Source: Candidatus Parcubacteria bacterium (GTDB lineage: Bacteria > Patescibacteriota > Minisyncoccia > Phycocordibacterales > PALSA-1337). Taken from it: a stretch of 59,326 bases of DNA. Under the pieces are notes generated by a model, which had not been told where the DNA came from, did not search any database, and was given only the letters and a program-made list of their open reading frames with translations. Both the position numbers and the translations under genes were made by a program. Within the stretch, counting starts at the first letter, position 1; each line of letters begins with the position of its first letter. Below, piece after piece: positions 1,025 to 37,751 of this stretch. The stretch lies in NCBI GenBank assembly GCA_039799225.1, contig JBDLTF010000006.1:1-59326 (forward strand), written 5' to 3'.

Positions 1025-1083
1025 AGAGAGATTCGTACGAGGTATAATACACTATTCGGCATTTTTGTGTTACTTTTATCTGC

Positions 1084-2229
1084 ATGAAGATAGTCATAGC
1101 AACCCCCATCTACCCTCCCGAGATCGGCGGCCCAGCCACCTATACCAAAGAGCTCTGCGAACGTCTCCACAGCGTCCACGATATTACGGTTGTTGCATAC
1201 ACCGACGTTGGTGCGGCATTCGAAGGGACCAAGCTCGTACCCGTGAGTAAGCGCAGACCTCTCCCGATTCGCCTCGCATTCTATATCCTCGCAGTATTCA
1301 AAGCTGCTCGCGGCGCAGATCTCATCTATGTGCAAAATGCCATGGCATCCGGTCTTCCTGTAGCGATTGTCTGTACGATTCTCCACAAACCATTCGTCCT
1401 CAAGTTTGTCGGTGATGAAGCGTGGGAACGTGCCACTCAGAAGCGCCTCACCAACAAGCGTCTCGAAGAATTCTTGGCTCACCCCGATGGTACCTGGAAA
1501 ATTCGTGCGATGATGCGCATTCAGGGTTGGGTACTCCGCCGTGCCGCATGTGTGACGACTCCTTCTGCGTATCTCTCCGAGGAATTGATCAAGACCTATG
1601 GAGTGCTCGCTGATCGTGCAATCGTGAATTACAATGCCGCAGAAGAAACCGAAGTTCTCCCTTTTGAACCGAAGCCTCCGGTAGCACACCAGATTGCTGT
1701 GACTGCACGCCTCACTGCCTGGAAAGGTATCGACGGCATCATTCGTGCCATGGCTATCATCCGCAAGAAATATCCTGATGCAAAAGTAATTATTGCTGGT
1801 GACGGACCAGAGACGGATACACTCAAGAAGCTCGCACATGATACCGGTGTCGAAGGAAATGTCTCCTTCCTCGGAAAAGTTTCGCGTGCCGAGACTTGGC
1901 ATGTCCGCAAGAATTCATCAGTCTATGTCCTCAACTCTACCTATGAAGGACTTCCTCACACCGTACTCACCAGCTTCGCCGCAGAGATACCCGTCATCGC
2001 TACGGATATTTCAGGGACCAATGAAGCGGTCTATCATGAGAAAACTGGTCTTCTTGTGAAGCCGGGCGATGATGCTGCGCTTGCTGCTGCAATAGAAAGA
2101 TTGTTCACTGATCAAGCGCTCTGCAAGAAATTGGTTGAAGGTGGCACGAAATTACTCAAAGAGAAATTCTCCTGGGAGGGGCATTTGAAAGGGTTGGAGG
2201 GGATCTTCAAAAAGATTACTGCGAAATAA
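1084..2229 (+). CDS. glycosyltransferase, GT4-like (GT-B fold)
   Basis: 381-aa ORF with ATG at 1084. The C-terminal region STYEGLPHTVLTSFAAEIPVIATDISGTNEAV is typical of the GT4 EX7E region. Confidence 0.8.
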   Translation: MKIVIATPIYPPEIGGPATYTKELCERLHSVHDITVVAYTDVGAAFEGTKLVPVSKRRPLPIRLAFYILAVFKAARGADLIYVQNAMASGLPVAIVCTILHKPFVLKFVGDEAWERATQKRLTNKRLEEFLAHPDGTWKIRAMMRIQGWVLRRAACVTTPSAYLSEELIKTYGVLADRAIVNYNAAEETEVLPFEPKPPVAHQIAVTARLTAWKGIDGIIRAMAIIRKKYPDAKVIIAGDGPETDTLKKLAHDTGVEGNVSFLGKVSRAETWHVRKNSSVYVLNSTYEGLPHTVLTSFAAEIPVIATDISGTNEAVYHEKTGLLVKPGDDAALAAAIERLFTDQALCKKLVEGGTKLLKEKFSWEGHLKGLEGIFKKITAK

Positions 2230-2257: not shown

Positions 2258-3217
2258 TTATTTCACCCTCTTCTCTTTGAACCACTCCACCAACCTCCCC
2301 ATTCCATCTTCAAGAGATACTTTCGGTTCCCACCCAATCAATTTCTTCGCTTTTGAAATATCTGCACAAGTCGTCTCTACGCTTGCGGAATGACTTGGAC
2401 GCATCTTGCGAGTTGCCGTCTTACCTGTCGCCTTTTCAAGAATCGCGAGTAATTCAAGAAGCGTGGTTGGGTTGCTGTTTCCAATATTCAAGACCTCATA
2501 CCCAAGTGGCTTCTGCATCGCGAGAACTGTTGCGTCGGCAACATCACCTACATAGGTATAGTCACGCTTACGAGATCCATCACCAGAGATTTCGATCTCT
2601 TTTCCTGCAAGCAATGCATTGGTCCAGACATACGGAACCATTCCGGGACGATTGTTCTCACCATACGCATTAAAGTAACGAAGGCAGGTGACATTCAAAC
2701 CGAAGTTGTGATGATACGCGTATGCGAAAAGTTCAGTCGCGCGCTTGGTAGCACCGTATGGAGAAAGTGGCATATCAGCAGTCTCTGATTCAACCCACGG
2801 GAATCGTGGTGTATTTCCGTACACCGAAGAAGATGAGGCCATGGCTATATTCTTGACCTTGTAGTCGCGCGCAAAATCGAGCACATTGAGTGTGCCGTTG
2901 ATATTTACATCGACATATTCACCGGGATTGTCGACAGCATTGCGCGTATCGGCGAGTGCGGCGAGATGGATAACATATGCAGGCTTCTCTTGTTCGAAGA
3001 CTGCTTTGAGAGCCGCTTTGTCACGAATATCGACACGTTCAAGCTTGAATACATTCGGATACGCAAGAAGAGGTGCTACATTATCTTCTTTGAATGTAGG
3101 ATCATAGACATCATTGAAGTTATCGACACAGACGACGCGGTATCCAGCGTCGATAAGCTTGCGGACCACATGGGACCCGATAAATCCTGCGCCACCTGTT
3201 ATGAGTACGGTATCCAT
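2258..3217 (-). CDS. NAD-dependent sugar-nucleotide epimerase/dehydratase (extended SDR; UDP-glucuronate/glucose 4-epimerase-like)
   Basis: ITGGAGFIGSH Rossmann motif and SPYGATK (YxxxK). Start taken at the ATG giving MDTVLITGG (3217), not the ORF-track start at 3283. Confidence 0.85.
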   Translation of the reverse strand: MDTVLITGGAGFIGSHVVRKLIDAGYRVVCVDNFNDVYDPTFKEDNVAPLLAYPNVFKLERVDIRDKAALKAVFEQEKPAYVIHLAALADTRNAVDNPGEYVDVNINGTLNVLDFARDYKVKNIAMASSSSVYGNTPRFPWVESETADMPLSPYGATKRATELFAYAYHHNFGLNVTCLRYFNAYGENNRPGMVPYVWTNALLAGKEIEISGDGSRKRDYTYVGDVADATVLAMQKPLGYEVLNIGNSNPTTLLELLAILEKATGKTATRKMRPSHSASVETTCADISKAKKLIGWEPKVSLEDGMGRLVEWFKEKRVK

Positions 3218-3258
3218 AGATTGCGGAAAGTCGCTCTGTACTATAGGATAAAACGGTG

Positions 3259-4356
3259 ATGAAATCAACGCACTCCGAAGCACAATGGAAGGAATATGTC
3301 GCCGAGCAACTCTCCAAAATATCTGCTCTGGTCAAACCTCTCGGGTTCGAACTCGACGAACATCAGCCTCATATAAGCGGTGAACGCTACCTTATGACGC
3401 GCAACAAGCTCGTGCTTGCAGCGACTAGAACTTCCGACAAGAAGATTGTCATCATAAAAGCGAGCAACCATCCTGATGGTCAGAAAGAAATCTCCACCGA
3501 GAAGACTGCGCGTGACACTCTCATGTCGATTGATTTCGCCTCTGAATACATCCTCTTCCCTGCAGAAATATATTTTGGAACAAAGGATGGATACATGTTC
3601 TGGATCGCTGAATATGTCCCTCAGGACAAAGTCTTCGTTGATCACTCGACCGAGGAACAGTTCTTCCTCATCTTGCGCGCATTCGAGGCACAGGAATCAT
3701 TCCACGCAACCACTTTTGAGCATTTGAAAACTATCCAGAAAAACTTCACCGTCTTCGGTCCAGAAAAGTATGTCGAGTCATTCAAGGAATTCCCGGGGAA
3801 ACTCCACGCCGCACTCGCTGAAATACAAGCTGATACTCAACCTCTCACTGATGCGTTCAAGCTACTCCAGTCCAATTCCGCTATTCTCGGCAAATACGCC
3901 AACTATCTGACACATACCGACTTCGTGCCACACAATTTCCGTGTACGCGACCACGCCCTCTACATGCTCGATTGTTCTGCGGTGCACTTCGGTAACAAGT
4001 ACGAAGGTTGGGCACGCTTCCTAAACTACATGCTCATCCACAATCCCAAGCTCGAACAAGTCTTGAGTACATATATCCGCAGCAACCGTGGTGCCGACGA
4101 ATACCTCGATCTCCGCTTGATGCGCACCTATAAGATTGGCTATCTGCTCGAATACTATGCCCGATCTCTCGAGAAGACCTCTGGAGACCTGCGTGAGCTC
4201 ACCAAGCTGCGTTTGTCATTCTGGCTAGAAATGCTCAAAGCCGTAGTCAACGATGTACAGCCTGACGCGAAGATATCTGAAGATTATCGAAAGGGACGCG
4301 ACGGACTACGTTCACCAGAAGAGAAAGAGAGACAGCAAGAATTCGCGAAGGCGTAG
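3259..4356 (+). CDS. phosphotransferase-family (APH/choline-kinase-like) protein
   Basis: HTDFVPHNF matches the HxDxxxxN catalytic-loop pattern, followed by MLDCSAVHFGNKYEGWARFL. The first ATG is at 3259; the track start at 3256 is GTG. Confidence 0.55.
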   Translation: MKSTHSEAQWKEYVAEQLSKISALVKPLGFELDEHQPHISGERYLMTRNKLVLAATRTSDKKIVIIKASNHPDGQKEISTEKTARDTLMSIDFASEYILFPAEIYFGTKDGYMFWIAEYVPQDKVFVDHSTEEQFFLILRAFEAQESFHATTFEHLKTIQKNFTVFGPEKYVESFKEFPGKLHAALAEIQADTQPLTDAFKLLQSNSAILGKYANYLTHTDFVPHNFRVRDHALYMLDCSAVHFGNKYEGWARFLNYMLIHNPKLEQVLSTYIRSNRGADEYLDLRLMRTYKIGYLLEYYARSLEKTSGDLRELTKLRLSFWLEMLKAVVNDVQPDAKISEDYRKGRDGLRSPEEKERQQEFAKA

Positions 4357-4359
4357 AGA

Positions 4360-5142
4360 TTACTTCCCTGCGTCTACAATTTCCTGAAACAGCGCTTTTG
4401 TAGCGACTGAAAATACCTTTTGCGGCTTATCACTCAACTCAGCCTGATTTCCATTCTCGTCATAGATCTCACCTCCTGCCTCTCGTAGTATTCCAACAGC
4501 TGAAGAAATATCTTTAGTGGTGAGCGTTCCATACACAGACGCATCCACTCTCCCTGCGGCGACGAAACAGATATCGAGTGCGGACGAGCCGAGGTTGAGA
4601 TTTTTCTTCGCGGTAGCGAGCAATGTTCTCTGTAGTTTAAGACCCCAATCAGCGAGCTCAGGTTTGCGGCCGATATGGAGCAAGACATGTGCATCAGAAA
4701 GTTTTTCAATAGTACGAACCTTGATCGGTGAACCATTCAAGGATGCACCTGCACCGTTTTCGAAGCTAAATAAATCTTTAGTAACAGGATTGTACACTGC
4801 ACCGACTACAGGCTGACCATTTTCAACATACCCAATACAGACTGCATAGTGAGGAATTCCTTGGGAAAAATTTGAAGTGCCATCTATAGGGTCGATGGTC
4901 CAAAATGATCCTGACTCATCAATAGAGCTAGCTGATTCCTCAGAATAAACAATCTCTCCAGGAAATGTCGCTTTAATCGCTTTCTTAATGAATTCATCGA
5001 CGACAATATCGACTGAGGTAACGAGATCGCGACTATCGCCATTCTTGGAAGAAACAGTGAATTTTTCCTCGCGTGTCTTGAGCAGAAGTTCACCTGCTTC
5101 GATGATGGTGGAGAGGATAAATGAGGAGCGGTTGGTGGTCAT
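4360..5142 (-). CDS. inositol monophosphatase family protein (SuhB/IMPase-like)
   Basis: WTIDPIDGTSNF and upstream YSEES metal-binding motifs. Start at the ATG giving MTTNRSSF (5142). Confidence 0.85.
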   Translation of the reverse strand: MTTNRSSFILSTIIEAGELLLKTREEKFTVSSKNGDSRDLVTSVDIVVDEFIKKAIKATFPGEIVYSEESASSIDESGSFWTIDPIDGTSNFSQGIPHYAVCIGYVENGQPVVGAVYNPVTKDLFSFENGAGASLNGSPIKVRTIEKLSDAHVLLHIGRKPELADWGLKLQRTLLATAKKNLNLGSSALDICFVAAGRVDASVYGTLTTKDISSAVGILREAGGEIYDENGNQAELSDKPQKVFSVATKALFQEIVDAGK

Positions 5143-5270
5143 GAAAATATAATTAAGTGGCCTAATTGTAGCTTGTTTAAGGAGATTATCTAATTGACAT
5201 GCGCTTATAAATATGTTAATAAGATAAGGAAACAGAACAACAAAAATCAATATATAGAAGGATTCACTAC

Positions 5271-5936
5271 ATGAAAGTACGCATATCTATCGGGAACATC
5301 GCTACTCGATTCCTAGACACTTCAAATGGAAAGATCACTCACCTCGCTATTCTCAATTCGGGAGCTTGGAAAAAGGGCGACCTGCTCTTCGGTGCCATCG
5401 GCGGAGCGGCAGAACTGACTCCTACAGGTCGTACCTATCTTGAGAAAACATACCGCGCAACGGATTTCTACAAGAATGACGCTCGGTTCATCATTGATGA
5501 ACAGCATCTCGATATGGTTATGCGCTTCTTCCAAATGCGCGACCCTTTATTTTTCGAGATTGAACCTCTTCGGGAAATCATCGAGGAACTCACTACGACT
5601 GAGTTCCCTACGATAAGTGAGCGGCCTGGAATACTTCCGATACTCACCACCTCCGAAGCACTTCGATTTGATATCGTATATCATCGAACAGTCCGACAAC
5701 CTATCCCAAAAATGGGAGTGGGTACTTCGCCTCTCGAACAGAAAGATGTCCCTTCTCGACGACTCTTCCACGAGTTCACCATGATTGGCTCGCAAGAACT
5801 CTTGGACAAAATGCTCGCCTCGAAAGCAGTAATTGCATTGACTGAAAGCGAGCTTGCTTCTACTCAAGGTGGCACTTGCAAAGGTACGACAGCAAATGGG
5901 ATGGCGGCCATCGCCGATAATATCGGCCTTCTGTAG
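5271..5936 (+). CDS. hypothetical protein (221 aa, soluble)
   Basis: Clean ORF with ATG at 5271, followed by a strong terminator. I recognise no motif with confidence. Confidence 0.6.
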   Translation: MKVRISIGNIATRFLDTSNGKITHLAILNSGAWKKGDLLFGAIGGAAELTPTGRTYLEKTYRATDFYKNDARFIIDEQHLDMVMRFFQMRDPLFFEIEPLREIIEELTTTEFPTISERPGILPILTTSEALRFDIVYHRTVRQPIPKMGVGTSPLEQKDVPSRRLFHEFTMIGSQELLDKMLASKAVIALTESELASTQGGTCKGTTANGMAAIADNIGLL

Positions 5937-7186: not shown

Positions 7187-9205
7187 CTAGTCTATATCGA
7201 GCACGTTCTTGAGCACTTCTTCAGGAACTTCCTTGGGCTTCTCTTTCTCATCAGCCACCGGAGCAGCTTTCACTTCTTTTTCTATCTGAGCCTTTGATTC
7301 GGTGAACACAATCTTCGGCAATGGTTTCAATTTCTCAGCAGATTTGAGCGCAGGAATAGCGATTGGAGCGTCAGAGGATGGGGCAGTTTTTGGCGTTTCG
7401 CTTTTCTTCGCCATCGCGGCGGCAAGCGCATTCTTGAGACCACTTACATTCTCTTTCGTCTGAGCCTTGGGATCATGGCGTGGAGACTGAGGCTTGGACT
7501 CGAGCGTAGACAGAGAGACTGGTTTTGTCGCTTCTGGTGCAGGCTTCGGAGTAAGAGGTTTAGATTCTGAAGCAACAACTTTCACAGGCTCTATCGCCTT
7601 AGGTTTCGCCATTGCAGTAGCGAGTGCATCTTTGAGGCTTGGATGACCTTCAAGTTCAGGCTTAGGAACTGCAGTTGCGAGAGGTTGCTTCTTCACTGGA
7701 GCTACAGGAACAGGTGCTGACGCAATAACTGGCTTAGGTGCAGGAGCTGGCGCTTGAGCAACTGGAACAACAGGTTTAGGAACGGGAGTAACTGGTGCGA
7801 CTACAACTGGTTGGATCTTAGGCATTGCAGCAAGCGAAGCAGAACCAACCTTAGGAGATGGTTTCTCACGATCACCAAGCGCTTCAATTTTCTTCATCGC
7901 TGGTGTCGAGTCATGGAACTTCGAAATCTCCACTTCGACTTCAGCCTTTGGCTTCGAGAACTGCTCGCGAGATGCAGCAAGAATCTCCTCGACGTATGAC
8001 GTGTCAGGATGCGCTATTGGTGGCAAAGTTGTAGCTGAGAATGGTGACGAGCTCAAACCATCAATCATGAGTTTGAGATAGATCTGCGCGAAACCGAGGT
8101 TGACCAAGTCTTCAAGCACAAAGACTGGTGCAAATTCTTTTTCGAATACTTCACCATCAGTCGCACCAACACGGAATGCAATCATGGTTCCCACGTTACC
8201 AAATACCGCAGGACGGACGATCTCATCCATCTGTTCAATGTACTGGTGCGCAATTGTAAGATTGAGTTTGTATTTTCGAGCTTCAGAGAGAATATCTGCA
8301 AATGATGCGTTGGCGAAGTTCTGGAACTCGTCCACGAAAAGGTAGAAGTTCGGAAGCATCTTCATGACGCGATCTGGCACATCTGCGCGTGACATAGCTG
8401 CGAGATATATTTTGGTAACAAGGAGACCCCCGAGAAGTTTCATATTCTCATCACCAATCCTTCCCTTTGAAAGGTTAATGATAATAATCTTGCGCTCATC
8501 CATCGCCTTACGGAAATCGAATGAGGACTTGGACTGACCGATCATATTCCTGATGAGTGGATTGGCGGTGAACTGACCAACTTTGTTCTGAATAGCAGGA
8601 ACTGCCTCAGCCGCCATACGTTCGGTATAGTTGGCAAACTCTTTGACCCAGAATGACTTCACCGAAGGATCAGTGACATGCGAAATGATTTCATTCCTGT
8701 ACGCCTTGTCGGAGAGCATACGGTTCACACCGAGGAGTGTAGTGTCTGGCGCTTCGAGAAGTGCGAGGAGTGTGTTGGTGAGGATGTATTCCATACGCGC
8801 AGACCATGCATCTTCCCAAATCTTCTTGAAAGTACTCATGAGTCCACCGACGACGAGATGTCTCTTCTCTGGACTAACACTCTCGAGCACGTTGAAGGAG
8901 ATTGGATTTTCGAGGTCAAAAGGCGCAATAACAATCACGTCACGAATACGATCCTTGGGCACATATTCGAGCATGAGATCAGCTGTCTTTCCGTGCGGAT
9001 CGATGAAGCACATGCCTTCGCCGCCCTGGATGTCCTGGACGGCCATGTTCTCGAGAAGAGTAGACTTTCCCATACCCGTCTTTCCGATGACGTACACGTG
9101 GCGTGTACGGTCTTTGGCCTTGATGCCAAACTTGAGGCGCTTGTTACGAGCGTCAGTTTCGCCGAAATAGGTTATGCGATTCTCATCGGTGGATACAGGA
9201 GCCAT
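7187..9205 (-). CDS. P-loop ATPase of the TraD/TraG/VirD4 (type IV coupling protein-like) family with a Pro/Ala/Lys-rich C-terminal tail
   Basis: Walker A VIGKTGMGKST, Walker B LFVDEFQNF, and KYKLNLTIAHQ. I saw no TM segment. Start preferred at 9205 (MAPVST) because TGgTACAAT lies at 9216-9224; an alternative ATG is at 9214. Confidence 0.7.
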   Translation of the reverse strand: MAPVSTDENRITYFGETDARNKRLKFGIKAKDRTRHVYVIGKTGMGKSTLLENMAVQDIQGGEGMCFIDPHGKTADLMLEYVPKDRIRDVIVIAPFDLENPISFNVLESVSPEKRHLVVGGLMSTFKKIWEDAWSARMEYILTNTLLALLEAPDTTLLGVNRMLSDKAYRNEIISHVTDPSVKSFWVKEFANYTERMAAEAVPAIQNKVGQFTANPLIRNMIGQSKSSFDFRKAMDERKIIIINLSKGRIGDENMKLLGGLLVTKIYLAAMSRADVPDRVMKMLPNFYLFVDEFQNFANASFADILSEARKYKLNLTIAHQYIEQMDEIVRPAVFGNVGTMIAFRVGATDGEVFEKEFAPVFVLEDLVNLGFAQIYLKLMIDGLSSSPFSATTLPPIAHPDTSYVEEILAASREQFSKPKAEVEVEISKFHDSTPAMKKIEALGDREKPSPKVGSASLAAMPKIQPVVVAPVTPVPKPVVPVAQAPAPAPKPVIASAPVPVAPVKKQPLATAVPKPELEGHPSLKDALATAMAKPKAIEPVKVVASESKPLTPKPAPEATKPVSLSTLESKPQSPRHDPKAQTKENVSGLKNALAAAMAKKSETPKTAPSSDAPIAIPALKSAEKLKPLPKIVFTESKAQIEKEVKAAPVADEKEKPKEVPEEVLKNVLDID

Positions 9206-24615: not shown

Positions 24616-25614
24616 TTACATTGCCGCTGGGACAGGCTTCATCGAAGGATACTTATCTGGGTCTATAGTTCTCGTGAAGCAAGCTCTACCCTCTTCATGC
24701 TTCCAATTGTCCTGATCTCCGATAATTGGGTATGCCATGTCGTATGATGGGTATGCGATTCCTATACCACCCCTGCCAGATCCATACTCTCCCTTGCCTG
24801 CATCATCCCTAGTAGGACGAGAGAAGGTGGCACAGAGCTCGAATGAGAGACCGCTTTGAGTATCTTTTGTTCCCATAACTCCCTTCACTGAATATTCATA
24901 CGCCTGCTTCGTCTCCGGATCCGTCGGAACAGTAAACCATGACAATGGGTCGCTGAGATCTGCCAAAGCCTGTGGAAGCTTCTCCTTCTGCTGCCAATAG
25001 CTGACAACTTGACCCTGGATACTCATAAGGTCATTCACGCGCTGACTATCGAAGCGATATGCACGCTGGGAAGCTGGTGATCCAACTGCGATGAATCCTG
25101 CAATGATTGCTGCAAGTACAAATATGATTCCAAACCATGCATTGGCCGTACGGGCCATCTTTGCCCAACGGAAATTAGGATACAAGCTATAGAAATAATA
25201 CTTTCCAATTGCACCTCCTACGAACAATACGACAATAATCTTGTATACGAAGCGCGAAGTAATTTCACCGCTTAGATAGGTGTTGAGGAGAGCGATAAGG
25301 TCGCCTCCCATGAGAATAACTGCTGAGAAGAGAATGATGTAGGTCTTCCATGAACGAATCCAAAGTCCTGCCTTCTCAGGCATCTTGGTAATATCACGAT
25401 TAATAACCCATTCAAGAACATAGAGAATAGGTACCAATACGACAAGCATTGATATCGGCCACGCGACGGCATTGCCGTAGAAATAGCCGGCGAGAGCATC
25501 AGGGAAATAATAATTGATGACACTAAACGAGAGATTGATAAGTGCACTTGCGGCTGCATAGAGCGCGACGATTGCACCAAGGTGCAAAAAGAAGTCTTTG
25601 GGTGTGGTTTTCAT
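24616..25614 (-). CDS. integral membrane protein (about 6 TM helices plus a C-terminal soluble domain), hypothetical
   Basis: Start at MKTTPKDFFLHLGAIVALYAA (25614). The longer ORF-track version overlaps the tRNA-like RNA. TGgTATAAT lies at 25624-25632. Confidence 0.7.
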   Translation of the reverse strand: MKTTPKDFFLHLGAIVALYAAASALINLSFSVINYYFPDALAGYFYGNAVAWPISMLVVLVPILYVLEWVINRDITKMPEKAGLWIRSWKTYIILFSAVILMGGDLIALLNTYLSGEITSRFVYKIIVVLFVGGAIGKYYFYSLYPNFRWAKMARTANAWFGIIFVLAAIIAGFIAVGSPASQRAYRFDSQRVNDLMSIQGQVVSYWQQKEKLPQALADLSDPLSWFTVPTDPETKQAYEYSVKGVMGTKDTQSGLSFELCATFSRPTRDDAGKGEYGSGRGGIGIAYPSYDMAYPIIGDQDNWKHEEGRACFTRTIDPDKYPSMKPVPAAM

Positions 25615-25679
25615 AATAGTTGTATTATACCAATATAGACGGAATAGCGCTGTAAATGTTACATGTTTGCGCGTATACG

Positions 25680-25704
25680 AAAAAACCGCCTTCAGGCGGT
25701 TTTC
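25680..25704 (-). terminator. terminator immediately 3' of the tRNA-like RNA
   Basis: CCGCC TTCA GGCGG hairpin flanked by A6/T-runs. It starts right after the ACCA end. Confidence 0.7.
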
Positions 25705-25835
25705 TGGTGCGCGCACTAGGGGTCTTTCCCTACGGGAACAGTATAGGTTTCGCGTCGTACTCGCTACGCTCCGTGCGACATGCTCAACCTTTTCGACCCC
25801 TAGCCGCATGTGCCATTAGGCACATGCTTACGCGC
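25705..25835 (-). ncRNA. 131-nt tRNA-like RNA (tRNA-Ile-derived acceptor and T stems, non-tRNA core)
   Basis: The 5' GCGCGUA pairs with UGCGCGC and is followed by ACCA. The 3'-terminal 20 nt are identical to tRNA-Ile (25705-25724 = 25860-25879). The D and anticodon arms are replaced by a 9-bp hairpin, GCAUGUGCC-UAAU-GGCACAUGC. The T stem is extended to 9 bp and encloses about 70 nt. Confidence 0.55.
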
Positions 25836-25859
25836 AAAAGTCTCCTTTCGGAGACTTTT
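25836..25859 (-). terminator. hairpin between tRNA-Ile and the tRNA-like RNA
   Basis: AAAAGTCTCC TTTC GGAGACTTTT. It abuts the CCA end of tRNA-Ile and the 5' end of the tRNA-like RNA. Confidence 0.5.
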
Positions 25860-25935
25860 TGGTGCGCGCACTAGGGGTCGAACCTAGGACCTTTCGAGTA
25901 TCAGTCGAATGCTCTACCAACTGAGCTATGCGCGC
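25860..25935 (-). tRNA. tRNA-Ile (anticodon GAU), CCA encoded
   Basis: Hand-folded cloverleaf: acceptor GCGCGCA/UGCGCGC, D stem GCUC/GAGC, anticodon loop CUGAUAC, T arm CUAGG-UUCGACC-CCUAG. 76 nt. Confidence 0.9.
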
Positions 25936-26123
25936 AAGTGAGGACAAAAAGAACAAACTCGTTTGGACTTTTGGTCCGAACGCCGCGCGGATATCGAGCG
26001 AAGCGAAGATATGCGCTACAGATAAGAGGTTACAACCTAGAACCCACAGAGAGATTGGATCAGAGCTGATACCTCAAACCAGTAAAGGTACATTACCAGA
26101 AATCCCCTATAAATTCAAGATAG

Positions 26124-26205
26124 TGGTCACGGGGGGAGTCGAACCCCCAACCCTTACGGGATACGCTTCTGAGACGTACGCGTATGCCAGTTCCGCCACG
26201 TGACC
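26124..26205 (-). tRNA. tRNA-Leu (anticodon CAG), class II, CCA not encoded
   Basis: Acceptor GGUCACG/CGUGACC, anticodon loop CUCAGAA, long variable arm UCCCGUAAGGGUU, T arm GGGGG-UUCGACU-CCCCC. Confidence 0.85.
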
Positions 26206-26313
26206 AGATTTCATTTTCAATAGTGAGTACTATATGCCAAATCAAATAAATAGGCAAAAGAAAAAGGGCCGCCGGATTGTACCAGCGGCCCACACATTCA
26301 TCTTTGAAACGGA

Positions 26314-37551: not shown

Positions 37552-37594
37552 TATATACGGGCTTTTAATACCCTTAATGTCTATAAGTATCCCA

Positions 37595-37629
37595 CAAAAA
37601 AACACCGCCTACAACGGCAGTGTTTTTTA
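37595..37629. terminator. terminator ending the 23S-5S unit
   Basis: ACACCGCC pairs with GGCAGTGT (one mismatch), flanked by A7 and T6, about 12 nt beyond the 5S 3' end. Confidence 0.7.
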
Positions 37630-37641
37630 TCGAATCCTCTG

Positions 37642-37751
37642 TTCTGGCGACAAGCTACTTTCGCCCCGTAGGACTATCATCGCCGCAACTATGTTTCACT
37701 TCCGTGTTCGGAATGGGAACGGGTGTTGCCATAGCGCCAAATCACCAGAAC
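37642..37751 (-). rRNA. rrf: 5S rRNA
   Basis: Minus-strand CCGAACACGGAAGUGAAAC and GCGAUGAUAGU...GGGGCGAAAGUAGC align with bacterial 5S. The ends pair (CUGGUGA.../...UCGCCAGA), and an extended flanking stem spans 37632-37647 and 37745-37760. Confidence 0.9.

Follow-up and report, generated by a model that had tools for sequence, protein, structure and literature searches.

A conserved, folded and apparently undescribed non-coding element family behind tRNA genes of Patescibacteria

Introduction

The tRNA-like domain of tmRNA and the bacterial YrlA (Y RNA-like) module imitate only part of a tRNA: other structures take the place of the D and anticodon arms, and a large domain has been added. 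tRNA-like structures serve as processing scaffolds in plant mitochondrial t-elements, MALAT1 mascRNA, MHV68 tRNA-miRNA transcripts and plant tRNA-snoRNA dicistrons. There are also tRNA-derived retroelements, and the Neurospora Mauriceville retroplasmid has a tRNA-like 3' end. Archaeal tRNA introns occur at non-canonical positions, the T loop included; to our knowledge, bacteria lack the archaeal-type tRNA splicing endonuclease. Some recombination sites are folded single strands, as in attP of the CTX phage, used with XerCD, and integron attC, used with integron integrases. Finally, phages and islands integrate at tRNA genes, and Williams is reported to have located their att sites, in 2002, either within the T loop or at the 3' end.

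Here we describe an element located behind tRNA-Ile(GAU) on contig JBDLTF010000006.1 of a Candidatus Parcubacteria bacterium. The whole stretch of DNA analysed, 59,326 nucleotides, is called the window. An initial annotation, made from the letters of the window, had read the element as a tRNA-like RNA derived from tRNA-Ile. Our analysis indicates that it is one copy of a conserved, folded, non-coding element family that lies behind Patescibacteria tRNA genes and is apparently undescribed. A full-text literature search found no description of such an element; a paper on TIGR-Tas mentions Patescibacteria, and its subject is something else.

Results

A tRNA-like scaffold encloses a 70-nt core

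The features of the locus are collected in Table 1. The initial description of the fold holds on the minus strand. The acceptor stem (25835-25829/25715-25709) has 7 base pairs, one of them G-U, and is followed by ACCA (25708-25705). One 9-bp hairpin with a UAAU loop, H1, does replace the D and anticodon arms, and the lengthened T stem, P1, encloses exactly 70 nt where about 70 had been given. The 24-nt hairpin before the element is also present, as is the 20-nt identity of the tail with tRNA-Ile (25705-25724 = 25860-25879). Past this repeat, the next 34 nt, which correspond to the adjoining duplicated hairpin, are only about 62% alike.

The 70-nt core, hereafter the cargo, contains the two local hairpins that had been noticed. 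J1/2 (GAAA) is followed by P2 (AGGUU/AACCU), a tandem GA/GA and P3, which carries AU and AC bulges and a GUA-capped tip. Then come J2/4 (AUACUG), P4 (UUCCC-GUA-GGGAA) and J4/1 (A). The minimum free energy of the element is -64.7 kcal/mol, compared with -42.7 +/- 3.7 kcal/mol for shuffled sequences (z = -6.0; 0 of 200 shuffles as stable). An independent Logan assembly of the source metagenome matches window positions 25300-25892 with 0 mismatches, so the element is not an assembly artefact.

Table 1. Features of the tRNA-Ile locus and of the element in the window.
Feature	Position	Strand	Remarks
tRNA-Ile(GAU), CCA encoded	25860..25935	-	ARAGORN; Rfam tRNA 74.2 bits; 3' half mirrored by the element
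Spacer hairpin AAAAGUCUCC-GAAA-GGAGACUUUU, 24 nt	25836..25859	-	between tRNA-Ile and the element
Whole element, 131 nt	25705..25835	-	tRNA-like scaffold and three-way-junction cargo
5' strand GCGCGUA	25829..25835	-	complementary to the acceptor 3' strand UGCGCGC of its own tail and of tRNA-Ile
Hairpin H1, GCAUGUGCC-UAAU-GGCACAUGC, 9 bp	25806..25827	-	occupies the place of the tRNA D and anticodon arms
P1 5' strand CUAGGGGUC	25795..25803	-	pairs with GACCCCUAG (25724-25716) as the lengthened 9-bp T stem
Cargo core, 70 nt	25725..25794	-	inside P1; recurs in other contigs and loci
Tail GACCCCUAGUGCGCGCACCA	25705..25724	-	direct repeat of tRNA-Ile positions 57-76
Terminator-like hairpin AAAACCGCC-UGAA-GGCGGUUUUUU	25680..25704 (hairpin 25703-25680)	-	after the element; read by eye
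Promoter-like site TTGCCT-17-TATAGT	26229..26257	-	ahead of tRNA-Leu

Gene order, flanking hairpins and transcription

The genes follow the order 16S, terminator-like site, promoter-like site, tRNA-Leu and tRNA-Ile, with the 23S gene 9 kb upstream. The idea that the element fills the usual slot of tRNA-Ala is not borne out by this order, and relatives are without tRNA-Ala there too. ARAGORN calls tRNA-Ile and tRNA-Leu at the locus and nothing else. Judging from its sequence, the promoter-like site ahead of tRNA-Leu is likely the start of a transcription unit formed by tRNA-Leu, tRNA-Ile and the element. In the window scan, no promoter-like site was found between tRNA-Ile and the element.

Visual inspection gives the downstream hairpin 5 G-C pairs along with the U6 run initially annotated, and the spacer hairpin a U4 run. 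A simple terminator scan flagged neither of them because their U runs lie partly within the stems, so that "terminator" is here a reading of the sequence and not a scored call. That the downstream hairpin is dedicated to the element is put in doubt by its resemblance to the native terminator of the tRNA in a relative, which is at least as strong as that of the upstream hairpin; in L006, a hairpin similar to the downstream one follows tRNA-Ile. In favour of co-transcription, the spacer is only 16-45 nt and free of hairpins in several family loci. A hairpin and U run ahead of the element, as in the window, could stop transcription coming from the tRNA promoter.

L024 is a relative whose element occupies the corresponding locus. 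Contigs from wastewater cDNA libraries cover this homologue, but no more deeply than the neighbouring sequence or the 16S unitigs of the same organism; DNA carry-over would account for such coverage equally well. The metatranscriptomes of the same study do not cover the window organism.

No further copy was found in the window by blastn, HMM or covariance model (CM); a weak CM match within the 5S gene (37585-37674, 13 bits) was dismissed as noise. A look-up gave no exact match on record for the protein of the neighbour gene. The genes of its homologues P0002, P0003, P0004, P0010 and P0024 have different upstream genes, and neither a tRNA nor an element is present there.

The element belongs to a family found behind tRNA and tmRNA genes

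An exact-core scan of species-representative genomes gave 17 matches, 14 of which are true loci; L016, L020 and L026 were excluded as chance matches within coding regions of other organisms. A metagenome scan added 6 loci, one duplicating L015. Other contigs from the source metagenomes carry the core with about 90% identity, and 20 loci of public genomes and metagenomes have it too. When the collected loci were searched by HMM and CM, 24 true matches emerged, so that the core is known from at least 24 sites on Patescibacteria contigs. For 20 of the 24, the gene immediately upstream, on the strand of the element in every case, encodes a tRNA or tmRNA, and at least 12 anticodon types are represented. 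The neighbours are genes for tRNA Ile, Ser, Leu(UAA, UAG), Val, Ala, Arg(UCU, GCG), Tyr, Glu, Trp and Cys, and for tmRNA; in L018 and L027, the contig holds only the 3' part of the tRNA. The true tmRNA of L019 is detected by the same tools (ARAGORN and Rfam).

A family model, R1, was built from 18 sequences. The window element matches it with 139.2 bits (E ~1e-33, model positions 1-133), second best of the 24 true hits, a score that is partly by construction since the window sequence is among the 18. Copies outside the training set score 24-107 bits.

Family copies measure about 130-160 nt, contain no protein gene and lie on the tRNA strand. All share one modular plan. From 5' to 3', it comprises a strand that can pair with the acceptor 3' strand of the neighbour, H1, a second strand matching the neighbour's T loop and T-stem 3' strand in the same antisense manner, the cargo and a direct repeat of the neighbour tRNA, which begins at T-loop position 57 (or 54) and stops a few bases beyond the tRNA end. 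H1 and the 70-nt core are common to elements behind tRNA-Ser, Leu, Val, Ala, Arg, Tyr, Glu, Trp and tmRNA; the derivation from tRNA-Ile initially put forward is therefore kept for the stems and the 3' tail, and given up for H1 and the core. The commonest cargo, also that of the window, is a three-way junction with almost invariant junction nucleotides. In two further copies, one after tRNA-Cys and one after tRNA-Leu(UAA), H1 and the scaffold are combined with a different cargo.

A tRNA 3' segment directly repeated on either side of a short insert is the classical signature of integration into a tRNA gene, and would also be left as a functionless scar if attL and attR of a larger integrated element were joined by internal deletion. 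The interior (H1 and core, about 110 nt) keeps a constant size behind at least 12 kinds of tRNA gene and shows compensatory changes, whereas independent deletions would not produce a constant, covarying interior. Moreover, searches of viral, phage and plasmid collections found no larger parent. A scar is thus highly improbable, and this reading is already nearly refuted.

The fold is conserved and the tRNA-sense strand is the folded strand

In the family alignment, 90.7-92.1% of cells in the modelled helices are paired, versus 69-73% after shuffling and 27-46% with partners slid, and 27-32 pairs have changes on both sides. All 8 modelled pairs of H1 covary (93-96% of cells paired), as do 7-8 pairs of P1 (91-92%) and 5 of 5 in P4 (99-100%). 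P2/P3 are paired in 99-100% of cells and covary in divergent copies found without the core pattern; that they do not vary within the 18 seeds is in part a consequence of the way in which these sequences were found. The junctions follow the pattern GAAA / tandem GA / RUACYG / GUA loop, with GAAA, GA/GA, AUACUG and a GUA loop in the window. Pairs of the G-U type far exceed A-C (59:22, or 37:9 without the acceptor stem), which designates the tRNA-sense strand as the folded one.

The least conserved helix is the acceptor stem, with 63-73% of cells paired. Together with the CCA end it had at first been taken as the strongest functional sign, but the two form the most variable part of the family and several copies have lost them. 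In contrast, the view that the element is not random decay is upheld by homologues in many relatives that keep the same fold through many compensatory changes. The search for homologues and covariation in relatives, recommended in the initial annotation, thus yielded both, and neither an isolated element nor a known-family match was found. A decaying partial duplicate of tRNA-Ile, or a chance fold, would account for the 20-nt identity with tRNA-Ile and for an element unmatched by models of tRNA or other RNA families. It does not account for homologues that follow many other tRNAs and keep both the core and the covarying helices, for a fold z of -6, or for 139 bits against a family model that is itself partly built from the window element. 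Homologues, covariation and model score together refute this reading, whose probability is negligible.

L024 has its element at the locus occupied in the window, and a visual estimate on the alignment puts the likeness of the two at about 90% over the stretch from H1 to P4. Their H1 hairpins differ by a compensatory U-A/A-U swap. Divergence is far greater in the adjacent DUF5671 proteins (63-69% identity with the window protein, among the listed relatives with this gene order), and the flanking spacers hardly align.

These data bear on a further explanation, a non-mobile host gene for a non-coding RNA. The tRNA-like scaffold would then only release the cargo from the tRNA transcript and stabilise it, by means of RNase P, 3' trimming and the CCA enzyme, and local gene conversion would keep the likeness to the tRNA. 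Parallels are known in tRNA-linked snoRNAs, mascRNA and the t-elements of plant mitochondria. Purifying selection on helices and junction nucleotides fits such a gene, as do the likeness of the window and L024 elements amid diverging flanks, the position on the tRNA strand with no promoter of its own, and the excess of sense-strand G-U pairs. The tail, 100% identical to the tRNA next to a duplicated hairpin that is about 62% alike, is compatible with selection or gene conversion acting on the tail. However, the acceptor stem that processing would need is missing from several otherwise intact copies, and the patches of 5-7 nt on the 5' side would be hard for gene conversion to rewrite. The number and variety of copies, presented below, also speak against a host gene, which we regard as rather unlikely.

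The 5' half mirrors the 3' half of the neighbour tRNA

The P1 5' strand and the next 3 nt are the exact complement of the T loop and T-stem 3' strand of tRNA-Ile, UUCGACCCCUAG. In this part, complementarity reaches 12/12 with tRNA-Ile and 9/12 with the element's own tail. The acceptor part is complementary to tRNA-Ile over 7/7 positions (one G-U). The element starts 24 nt after tRNA-Ile. The spacer hairpin extends into a long helix of the tRNA-Ile 3' half with the element 5' half (-48.8 kcal/mol). The latter pairs with the 3' half of the upstream tRNA at least as well as with its own tail. The minimum free energy fold of the precursor, tRNA-Ile plus element (-126.6 kcal/mol), has the form of a single tRNA-Ile whose T loop is interrupted by 155 nt between positions 56 and 57.

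In 16 loci, the direct repeat of the tRNA 3' segment spans 9-35 nt, often going 2-15 nt past the tRNA end. Tails have decayed in L013, L021, L024, L025 and L027, where the 5' half still matches the tRNA. In L015, L021, L025 and L027, complementarity extends further, across discriminator, trailer and hairpin stem, with -56 to -75 kcal/mol. A retro-copy with repeats ending at the mature CCA was considered and rejected, because in most loci the repeats run 2-15 nt past the discriminator into the trailer.

The presence of both direct and inverted copies of the target could be explained by a folded single-stranded DNA recombination substrate. A helix of the tRNA 3' segment with its inverted copy, together with the H1 branch, would mimic the duplex tRNA-gene target, and a host or helper recombinase would integrate a tiny single-stranded circle; the cargo would serve in replication or recognition. 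Such a substrate would need both copies of the target, accounts for complementarity running through discriminator, trailer and hairpin stem in the four loci mentioned above, and on integration would leave the order that is observed: repeat, loop, inverted repeat, cargo, repeat. The tip of P3 is a mini-hairpin of the GCGAAGC/GCGUAGC type, which is known for its unusual stability as DNA. On the other hand, no circular or single-stranded form was seen among the source metagenome contigs, no recombinase linked to the elements was found, and the GAAA junction, tandem G-A pairs and G-U excess look more like RNA; covariation by itself cannot tell RNA from sense-strand DNA. We consider this explanation improbable.

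Comparison with described systems

Rfam searches at the gathering score (whole window and five loci) and at E <= 10 on 25550-26300 reported tRNA, tmRNA and rRNA only, with nothing other than noise over the element. The ARAGORN and Rfam check proposed in the initial annotation thus found no known RNA-family model matching the element. Its statement that the element is not a tmRNA agrees with the absence of any ARAGORN or Rfam match (RF00023, permuted forms) over 25705-25835. A canonical tRNA (RF00005) was also rejected: a single 9-bp hairpin with a 4-nt loop replaces two arms, ARAGORN makes no call and no tRNA model matches at E <= 10. Instead of a canonical T arm (5-bp stem, 7-nt UUCRANY loop), the element has 9 bp closing a 70-nt three-way junction. 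The tRNA end of the window element is canonical, with a 7-bp acceptor stem, discriminator A and CCA. For YrlA (RF02553), the sole weak match (14.7 bits) falls on tRNA-Leu.

Like the tRNA-like domain of tmRNA and the YrlA module, the element is a partial tRNA mimic with two arms replaced and a large domain inserted. Unlike them, it has no RF00023, RF01849-type or RF02553 match and is without an intact T loop, a tag reading frame or pseudoknots. In a comparison by eye, hammerhead, group II domain 5, k-turn and sarcin-ricin motifs did not fit the core.

With tRNA-like processing scaffolds, the element shares an acceptor/T-type coaxial helix (with CCA in the window copy) beside or fused with another RNA, and a putative tRNA co-transcript. 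By analogy, release by RNase P or RNase Z is plausible. The cargo, in contrast, lies within the T loop and not beside the mimic, the stems copy the adjacent tRNA exactly and several copies dispense with the acceptor helix. Plant tRNA-snoRNA dicistrons figure in the reference list of PMC12045711. The precursor fold recalls archaeal introns in the T loop, but the upstream tRNA-Ile gene is already complete (74 bits).

Like integrative elements of tRNA genes, family members are inserted at the 3' end of tRNA or tmRNA genes in a fixed orientation and leave the gene intact. The direct repeat starts in the T loop and stops just beyond the 3' end of the gene, tandem copies occur and the outer repeat decays. 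What differs is the small size, about 135 nt between repeats with no integrase or other gene, the inverted target copy broken by a hairpin, and an interior that is a conserved folded domain. An insert of 135 nt is too small for a gene, and the element encodes no integrase or recombinase.

As in CTX attP and attC, an inverted-repeat hairpin rebuilds a duplex chromosomal target, extra-helical features are present and the order repeat, inverted repeat, cargo, repeat is the expected one. Here, however, a tRNA gene serves as the target, the motifs of the conserved cargo are RNA-like, and no single-stranded form, recombinase or dif-like site was identified. The family also resembles tRNA-derived retroelements in being tRNA-derived, non-coding, multi-copy and joined to tRNA sequence, and the window copy has a tRNA-like 3' end with CCA. 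It differs in that no reverse transcriptase lies nearby, the repeats mostly do not end at the mature CCA and copies lie beside tRNA genes rather than dispersed.

Multiple copies and swapped modules

Several copies are found per genome: L013 and L022 belong to one genome, L017 and L018 to one as well, and L015 contains 4 copies in 8 kb, including a tandem pair. Decayed or orphan copies are seen in L022 (3606-3752), L032 and L033. Modules appear to be exchanged. L031 and the tRNA-Trp copy of L022 have a common H1 and different neighbours, L014 and L031 have the same locus and core with a different H1, and the same scaffold occurs with other cargos. For a host RNA gene, copies within a genome that differ in H1, P4 and even cargo, tandem, decayed and orphan copies, and H1 modules common to unrelated loci would all be difficult to explain. 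Multiple, tandem and decayed copies with swapped modules rather suggest a small non-autonomous mobile element.

An all-against-all comparison of ORFs within 4 kb of 21 loci revealed no recurrent neighbour protein (integrase, reverse transcriptase or other), orthologous synteny aside. The scanned stretch of the window contains housekeeping genes only, which counts against mobility. No excised or circular junction (back-joint) was found in the source metagenome contigs, and phage, plasmid and viral collections gave no match to the element (two viral-contig scans, blastn). In L006 and L007, no element separates tRNA-Ile from the DUF5671 gene, although a weak match points to a possible 45-nt remnant. 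As this only "empty" orthologous site may hold a remnant, a clean presence/absence polymorphism is not established.

Discussion

With middling confidence, we propose that the elements form a small non-autonomous family, mobile or duplicative, that enters tRNA genes and is transcribed with the tRNA. Entry would take place at the T loop or the 3' end. Like integrative elements that target tRNA genes, the element would bring its own copy of the tRNA 3' segment and hairpin, so that the gene stays intact and the displaced 3' segment remains as the tail. It would be transcribed by read-through from the tRNA promoter. The RNA could adopt one fold with a tRNA-like scaffold (acceptor/P1 stack), excisable by tRNA-processing enzymes, and another, together with the tRNA, as one tRNA bearing the 155-nt T-loop insertion. 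The cargo would be the part under selection and presumably binds a partner acting in trans, either a mobilising enzyme or a host factor.

Several observations sit uneasily with mobility. A model based on a double-stranded integrase leaves the inverted target copy unexplained, and the mechanisms proposed do not explain how both 5' strands are matched again to each new tRNA. Moreover, the elements of the window and L024 are strongly conserved at one locus, as a vertically inherited host gene would also be.

A bolder form of the mobile reading, which we find fairly unlikely, is a new class of protein-less, self-targeting element. It would be a tRNA-shaped RNA or single-stranded DNA in which the final 20-35 nt of the tRNA gene are present twice, once in antisense and once in sense orientation. 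By that complementarity, acting as a folded target mimic or a guide, it would home to the T loop or 3' end; it would swap cargos and use a host or helper enzyme that recognises the three-way junction.

Patescibacteria are a large, little-studied bacterial branch with ultra-small genomes. If our reading is right, many of their tRNA genes would be shadowed by a conserved, folded non-coding element. Such elements break or confuse tRNA annotation and assembly near tRNA and rRNA loci in metagenome-assembled genomes, and the family provides a ready covariance model for finding further copies. It would constitute a new structured-RNA family with an almost invariant three-way junction which, if the family is as it appears, implies some binding partner or activity. 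It would also be a natural counterpart of the laboratory "tRNA scaffold" for RNA expression, and may represent a new route for a gene-less element to recognise and enter tRNA genes.

A tRNA-like element between tRNA-Ile and a membrane-protein gene

The window belongs to a member of Patescibacteria. All relevant genes at the element locus lie on the minus strand. On that strand, the element starts with the 5' strand GCGCGUA, joined by a single A to hairpin H1 (GCAUGUGCC-UAAU-GGCACAUGC), which stands in the place of the D and anticodon arms. A GG linker leads to the lengthened T stem, P1 (CUAGGGGUC/GACCCCUAG), whose strands enclose 70 nt. The acceptor 3' strand UGCGCGC and ACCA complete the element. 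Its last 20 nt are identical to positions 57-76 of tRNA-Ile. The predicted fold reaches -64.7 kcal/mol, 6 standard deviations better than shuffled sequence. These observations confirm the initial annotation as to the parts, the 20-nt identity and the fold, and an independent assembly of the source metagenome reproduced the sequence. The proposed origin from tRNA-Ile holds for the stems and the tail, not for the remainder. Neither ARAGORN nor any of the 4227 Rfam models recognised the element.

Features of the element locus and of related loci
Sequence	Feature	Coordinates	Strand	Remark
Window	23S, then 5S	23S 41190-37834	minus	first in gene order
Window	housekeeping block		minus	9 kb, between 23S-5S and 16S
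Window	16S	28387-26843	minus	followed by terminator-like and promoter-like sites
Window	terminator-like site	26291-26266		after 16S
Window	tRNA-Leu(CAG)	26205-26123	minus	after promoter-like site
Window	GCGAAGC mini-hairpin motif	about 25996-26010	minus	
Window	tRNA-Ile(GAU)	25935-25860	minus	CCA encoded (25860-25862)
Window	spacer hairpin		minus	24 nt, between tRNA-Ile and element
Window	element	25835-25705	minus	CCA encoded in tail (25705-25707)
Window	recurring interior	25718-25796		
Window	second hairpin with U6 run		minus	3' of element
Window	TATAAT box		minus	after second hairpin, before DUF5671 gene
Window	DUF5671 membrane-protein gene	24616-25614	minus	adjoins element
Window	mechanical ORF, 397 aa	24616-25809	minus	artefact
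L006	end of tRNA-Ile gene	about 1040-1046		without CCA
L006	possible remnant	1070-1120		after tRNA-Ile terminator
L024	end of tRNA-Ile gene	about 3379-3382		without CCA
L024	contig junction	3162/3381		runs X26, X33
L015	scaffold-type element	2986-3143	plus	Parcubacteria GW2011_GWA2_43_11
L015	scaffold-type element	3172-3303	plus	
L015	scaffold-type element	4850-4990	minus	
L015	scaffold-type element	1405-1549	minus	
L028	core with longer insert	7584-7724	plus	near contig end
L019	locus with tmRNA neighbour	5057-5436		

The rRNA genes of the window are unlinked; the block separating 23S-5S from 16S encodes SecD/SecF, an epimerase, sugar and glycosyl transferases and FtsW/RodA. The 23S match spans 3357 nt against a model of 2925 positions and therefore holds about 430 nt of extra sequence, in one or more insertions. 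No ORF of at least 150 aa was found inside the 23S gene. The 397-aa ORF starts within the element, crosses the terminator-like hairpin and the promoter and enters the DUF5671 gene. It is an artefact, the true start being the ATG at 25614 with TATAAT in front. Hundreds of DUF5671 homologues carry the names Parcubacteria, Taylorbacteria, Paceibacteria or Minisyncoccia. In two relatives, L006 and L024, the tRNA-Ile gene reads ...GCGCACAAG; a single A-to-C substitution would explain how they differ from the window.

A family of elements beside tRNA genes

The interior of the element recurs at about 90% identity in other contigs of the source metagenomes; their flanks differ, and the depth of some equals that of the window. 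A 20-nt core word, searched in one genome per species, matched at 17 loci, of which 14 are true and 3 are chance matches in coding regions. A gapped core pattern added six loci from JGI metagenomes, one of which (L030) duplicates L015. HMM and covariance-model searches of the collected loci yielded four further copies, divergent or decayed. Most true matches (20/24) immediately follow a tRNA or tmRNA gene, at its 3' side and in the same orientation. The neighbours are Ile, Ser, Leu(UAA), Leu(UAG), Val, Ala, Arg(UCU), Arg(GCG), Tyr, Glu, Trp, Cys and tmRNA. Three copies are orphans and L011 is ambiguous; the contigs of L018 and L027 begin within the tRNA, and its 3' part alone is visible. With no match in Rfam and no description found in full-text literature searches, these tRNA-shadowing structured elements apparently form an undescribed family.

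Every copy follows a five-part plan: a 5' strand complementary to the 3' acceptor strand of the neighbour; H1, of 8-10 bp, its base often AGCAAG...CUUGCGU; a strand complementary to the T loop of the neighbour and the 3' strand of its T stem; a cargo domain; and a direct repeat of the neighbouring tRNA that starts at T-loop position 57 (or 54). The cargo of the window and of most copies is a three-way junction. It comprises J1/2 (GAAA), P2 (AGGUU/AACCU), an internal loop of tandem GA/GA, P3 with two bulges and a variable tip, J2/4 (RUACYG), P4 with a GUA loop and J4/1 ((A)GA).

Some genomes hold multiple copies. L015 has four in 8 kb, behind three of its four tRNA genes; tRNA-Lys has none. Two stand in tandem after tRNA-Leu(UAA), the others behind tRNA-Cys and tRNA-Leu(UAG). 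The first tandem copy and the tRNA-Cys copy keep the scaffold with different cargos, each its own. In the second tandem copy the usual cargo is present in an A+U-rich form with identical fold, A-U replacing G-C pairs in P2 and P3.

In L028, the usual core has a longer insert in place of P4. It sits near a contig end within a larger G+C-rich, hairpin-filled region, with no tRNA gene detected upstream, and may represent a larger relative of the family. Short GAGCGAAGCGA / CGAACGAAGUGAG-type motifs containing a GCGAAGC mini-hairpin recur in tRNA leaders, in tRNA-element spacers without a terminator-like hairpin (among the spacers with the motif are those of L012, L014, L015, L025 and L029) and at many P3 tips.

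Covariation and the folded strand

Pairing was scored in a MAFFT alignment and in one fitted to R1, our sequence-plus-structure model.

Base pairing in two alignments of the family
Measure	MAFFT (18 copies)	Model-fitted (25 matches; leans towards the model)
Cells paired	90.7%	92.1%
Shuffled control	72.5%	68.9%
Partners slid	27-46%	27-46%
Pairs changing on both sides	27	32
H1 paired	93.5%	96%
P1 paired	92%	91%
P4 paired	100%	99%
P2/P3 paired	100%; invariance among seed copies partly by construction, as seeds were found via exact core words	99%, four covarying pairs
Acceptor paired	62.6%	73%

Every pair of H1 and P4 covaries in the MAFFT alignment. The family structure is under selection. The null of random decay is rejected, as the initial annotation had anticipated. 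That annotation had stressed the acceptor pairing and the CCA end; the conserved parts are instead H1, the T-like helix and the three-way junction. G-U pairs outnumber A-C oppositions 59:22 (37:9 without the acceptor), so the folding strand is the tRNA-sense strand.

Pairing with the upstream tRNA, and transcription

At all 16 loci examined, the strand preceding the cargo is complementary at 11-12 of 12 positions to the T loop and T-stem 3' strand of the upstream tRNA. Where the tail has decayed (L013, L021, L024, L025, L027), the 5' strand still matches the tRNA acceptor 3' strand. At many loci complementarity continues through discriminator, trailer and spacer hairpin, giving helices of -56 to -75 kcal/mol. 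The element might be a recombination substrate of folded single-stranded DNA. This would best explain the inverted target copy, but we consider it improbable.

The minimum-energy fold of the whole window precursor (-126.6 kcal/mol) is a tRNA-Ile with a 155-nt T-loop insertion. The tail pairs with the tRNA's 5' parts, and the element's 5' half with the tRNA's own 3' segment. The locus therefore has two equivalent readings: a tRNA with a tRNA-like element behind it, or a tRNA gene whose T-loop insert brings a replacement 3' end.

Co-transcription of element and tRNA is the simplest reading, because a promoter-like site is present before tRNA-Leu and absent before the element, and the spacer is short and unstructured at several loci. 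The metatranscriptomes of the window's own study do not cover the organism. In wastewater cDNA libraries, one contig of depth 40-145 extends from the 3' end of tRNA-Ile across the L024 element and reaches into the DUF5671 gene. Depths are similar for the neighbouring L024 genes and for the 16S unitigs of the same organism, so DNA carry-over is a possible source.

Mobile element or resident gene

The 9-35 nt direct repeat of the tRNA 3' segment, often reaching 2-15 nt beyond the tRNA end, is what integration of an element into a tRNA gene leaves behind. Further signs of mobility are copies that are multiple, in tandem, decayed or orphaned, and the exchange of modules. L031 (tRNA-Val) and a decayed L022 copy (tRNA-Trp) have near-identical H1 hairpins; L014 and L031 share locus, neighbours and core, with unrelated H1 hairpins. 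Separately, L011, L017 (tRNA-Ala) and L019 (tmRNA) have a homologous spacer hairpin and left end beside differing neighbours, suggesting that there was transfer among genes whose Ala-type acceptor and T arms are alike.

No recombinase or reverse transcriptase was linked to the elements among neighbouring genes, no relatives were found in phage, plasmid or viral collections, and no excised form was seen in the source metagenome. L006 and L007 lack the element but, given a possible 45-nt remnant with a weak match, offer no clean empty site. The L006 stretch, GCGCAAGAGGGTGAGCCTAACTGACCCTGTA, aligns with three parts of the element (the 5' strand, the start of the core and the region of P4); it may be a deleted remnant, although the match could be due to chance. 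In runs X26 and X33, an other-strain contig skips 218 nt of L024, joining the tRNA-Ile 3' end region to the DUF5671 start. This could be an allele without the element.

Other observations are signs of constraint at the level of the host. In the window and in L024 the element occupies the same locus, flanked by tRNA-Ile and the DUF5671 gene. Judged by eye on the alignment, these two copies have a similarity of about 90% over the stretch from H1 to P4, and H1 shows a compensatory swap. Divergence is far greater in the neighbouring proteins (63-69% identity to the window's protein among listed DUF5671 relatives with the same gene order), and the spacers can scarcely be aligned. Within each genome, the bases at tRNA T-loop positions 59-60 agree with those in the 5' strand of the element and in its tail (CC/GG/CC in the window, AU/AU/AU in L024). 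The 20-nt tail of the window's element equals the tRNA, yet similarity drops to about 62% in the duplicated hairpin next to it. These data fit three segments held in step by selection or gene conversion; repeated site-specific re-integration would fit them equally well. The main rival to mobility is a resident small-RNA gene using a tRNA-like scaffold for processing, a possibility we rate well below it. The best reading, to which we give about an even chance, is a small non-autonomous mobile element that would insert into the T loop or 3' end of a tRNA gene and be transcribed together with it.
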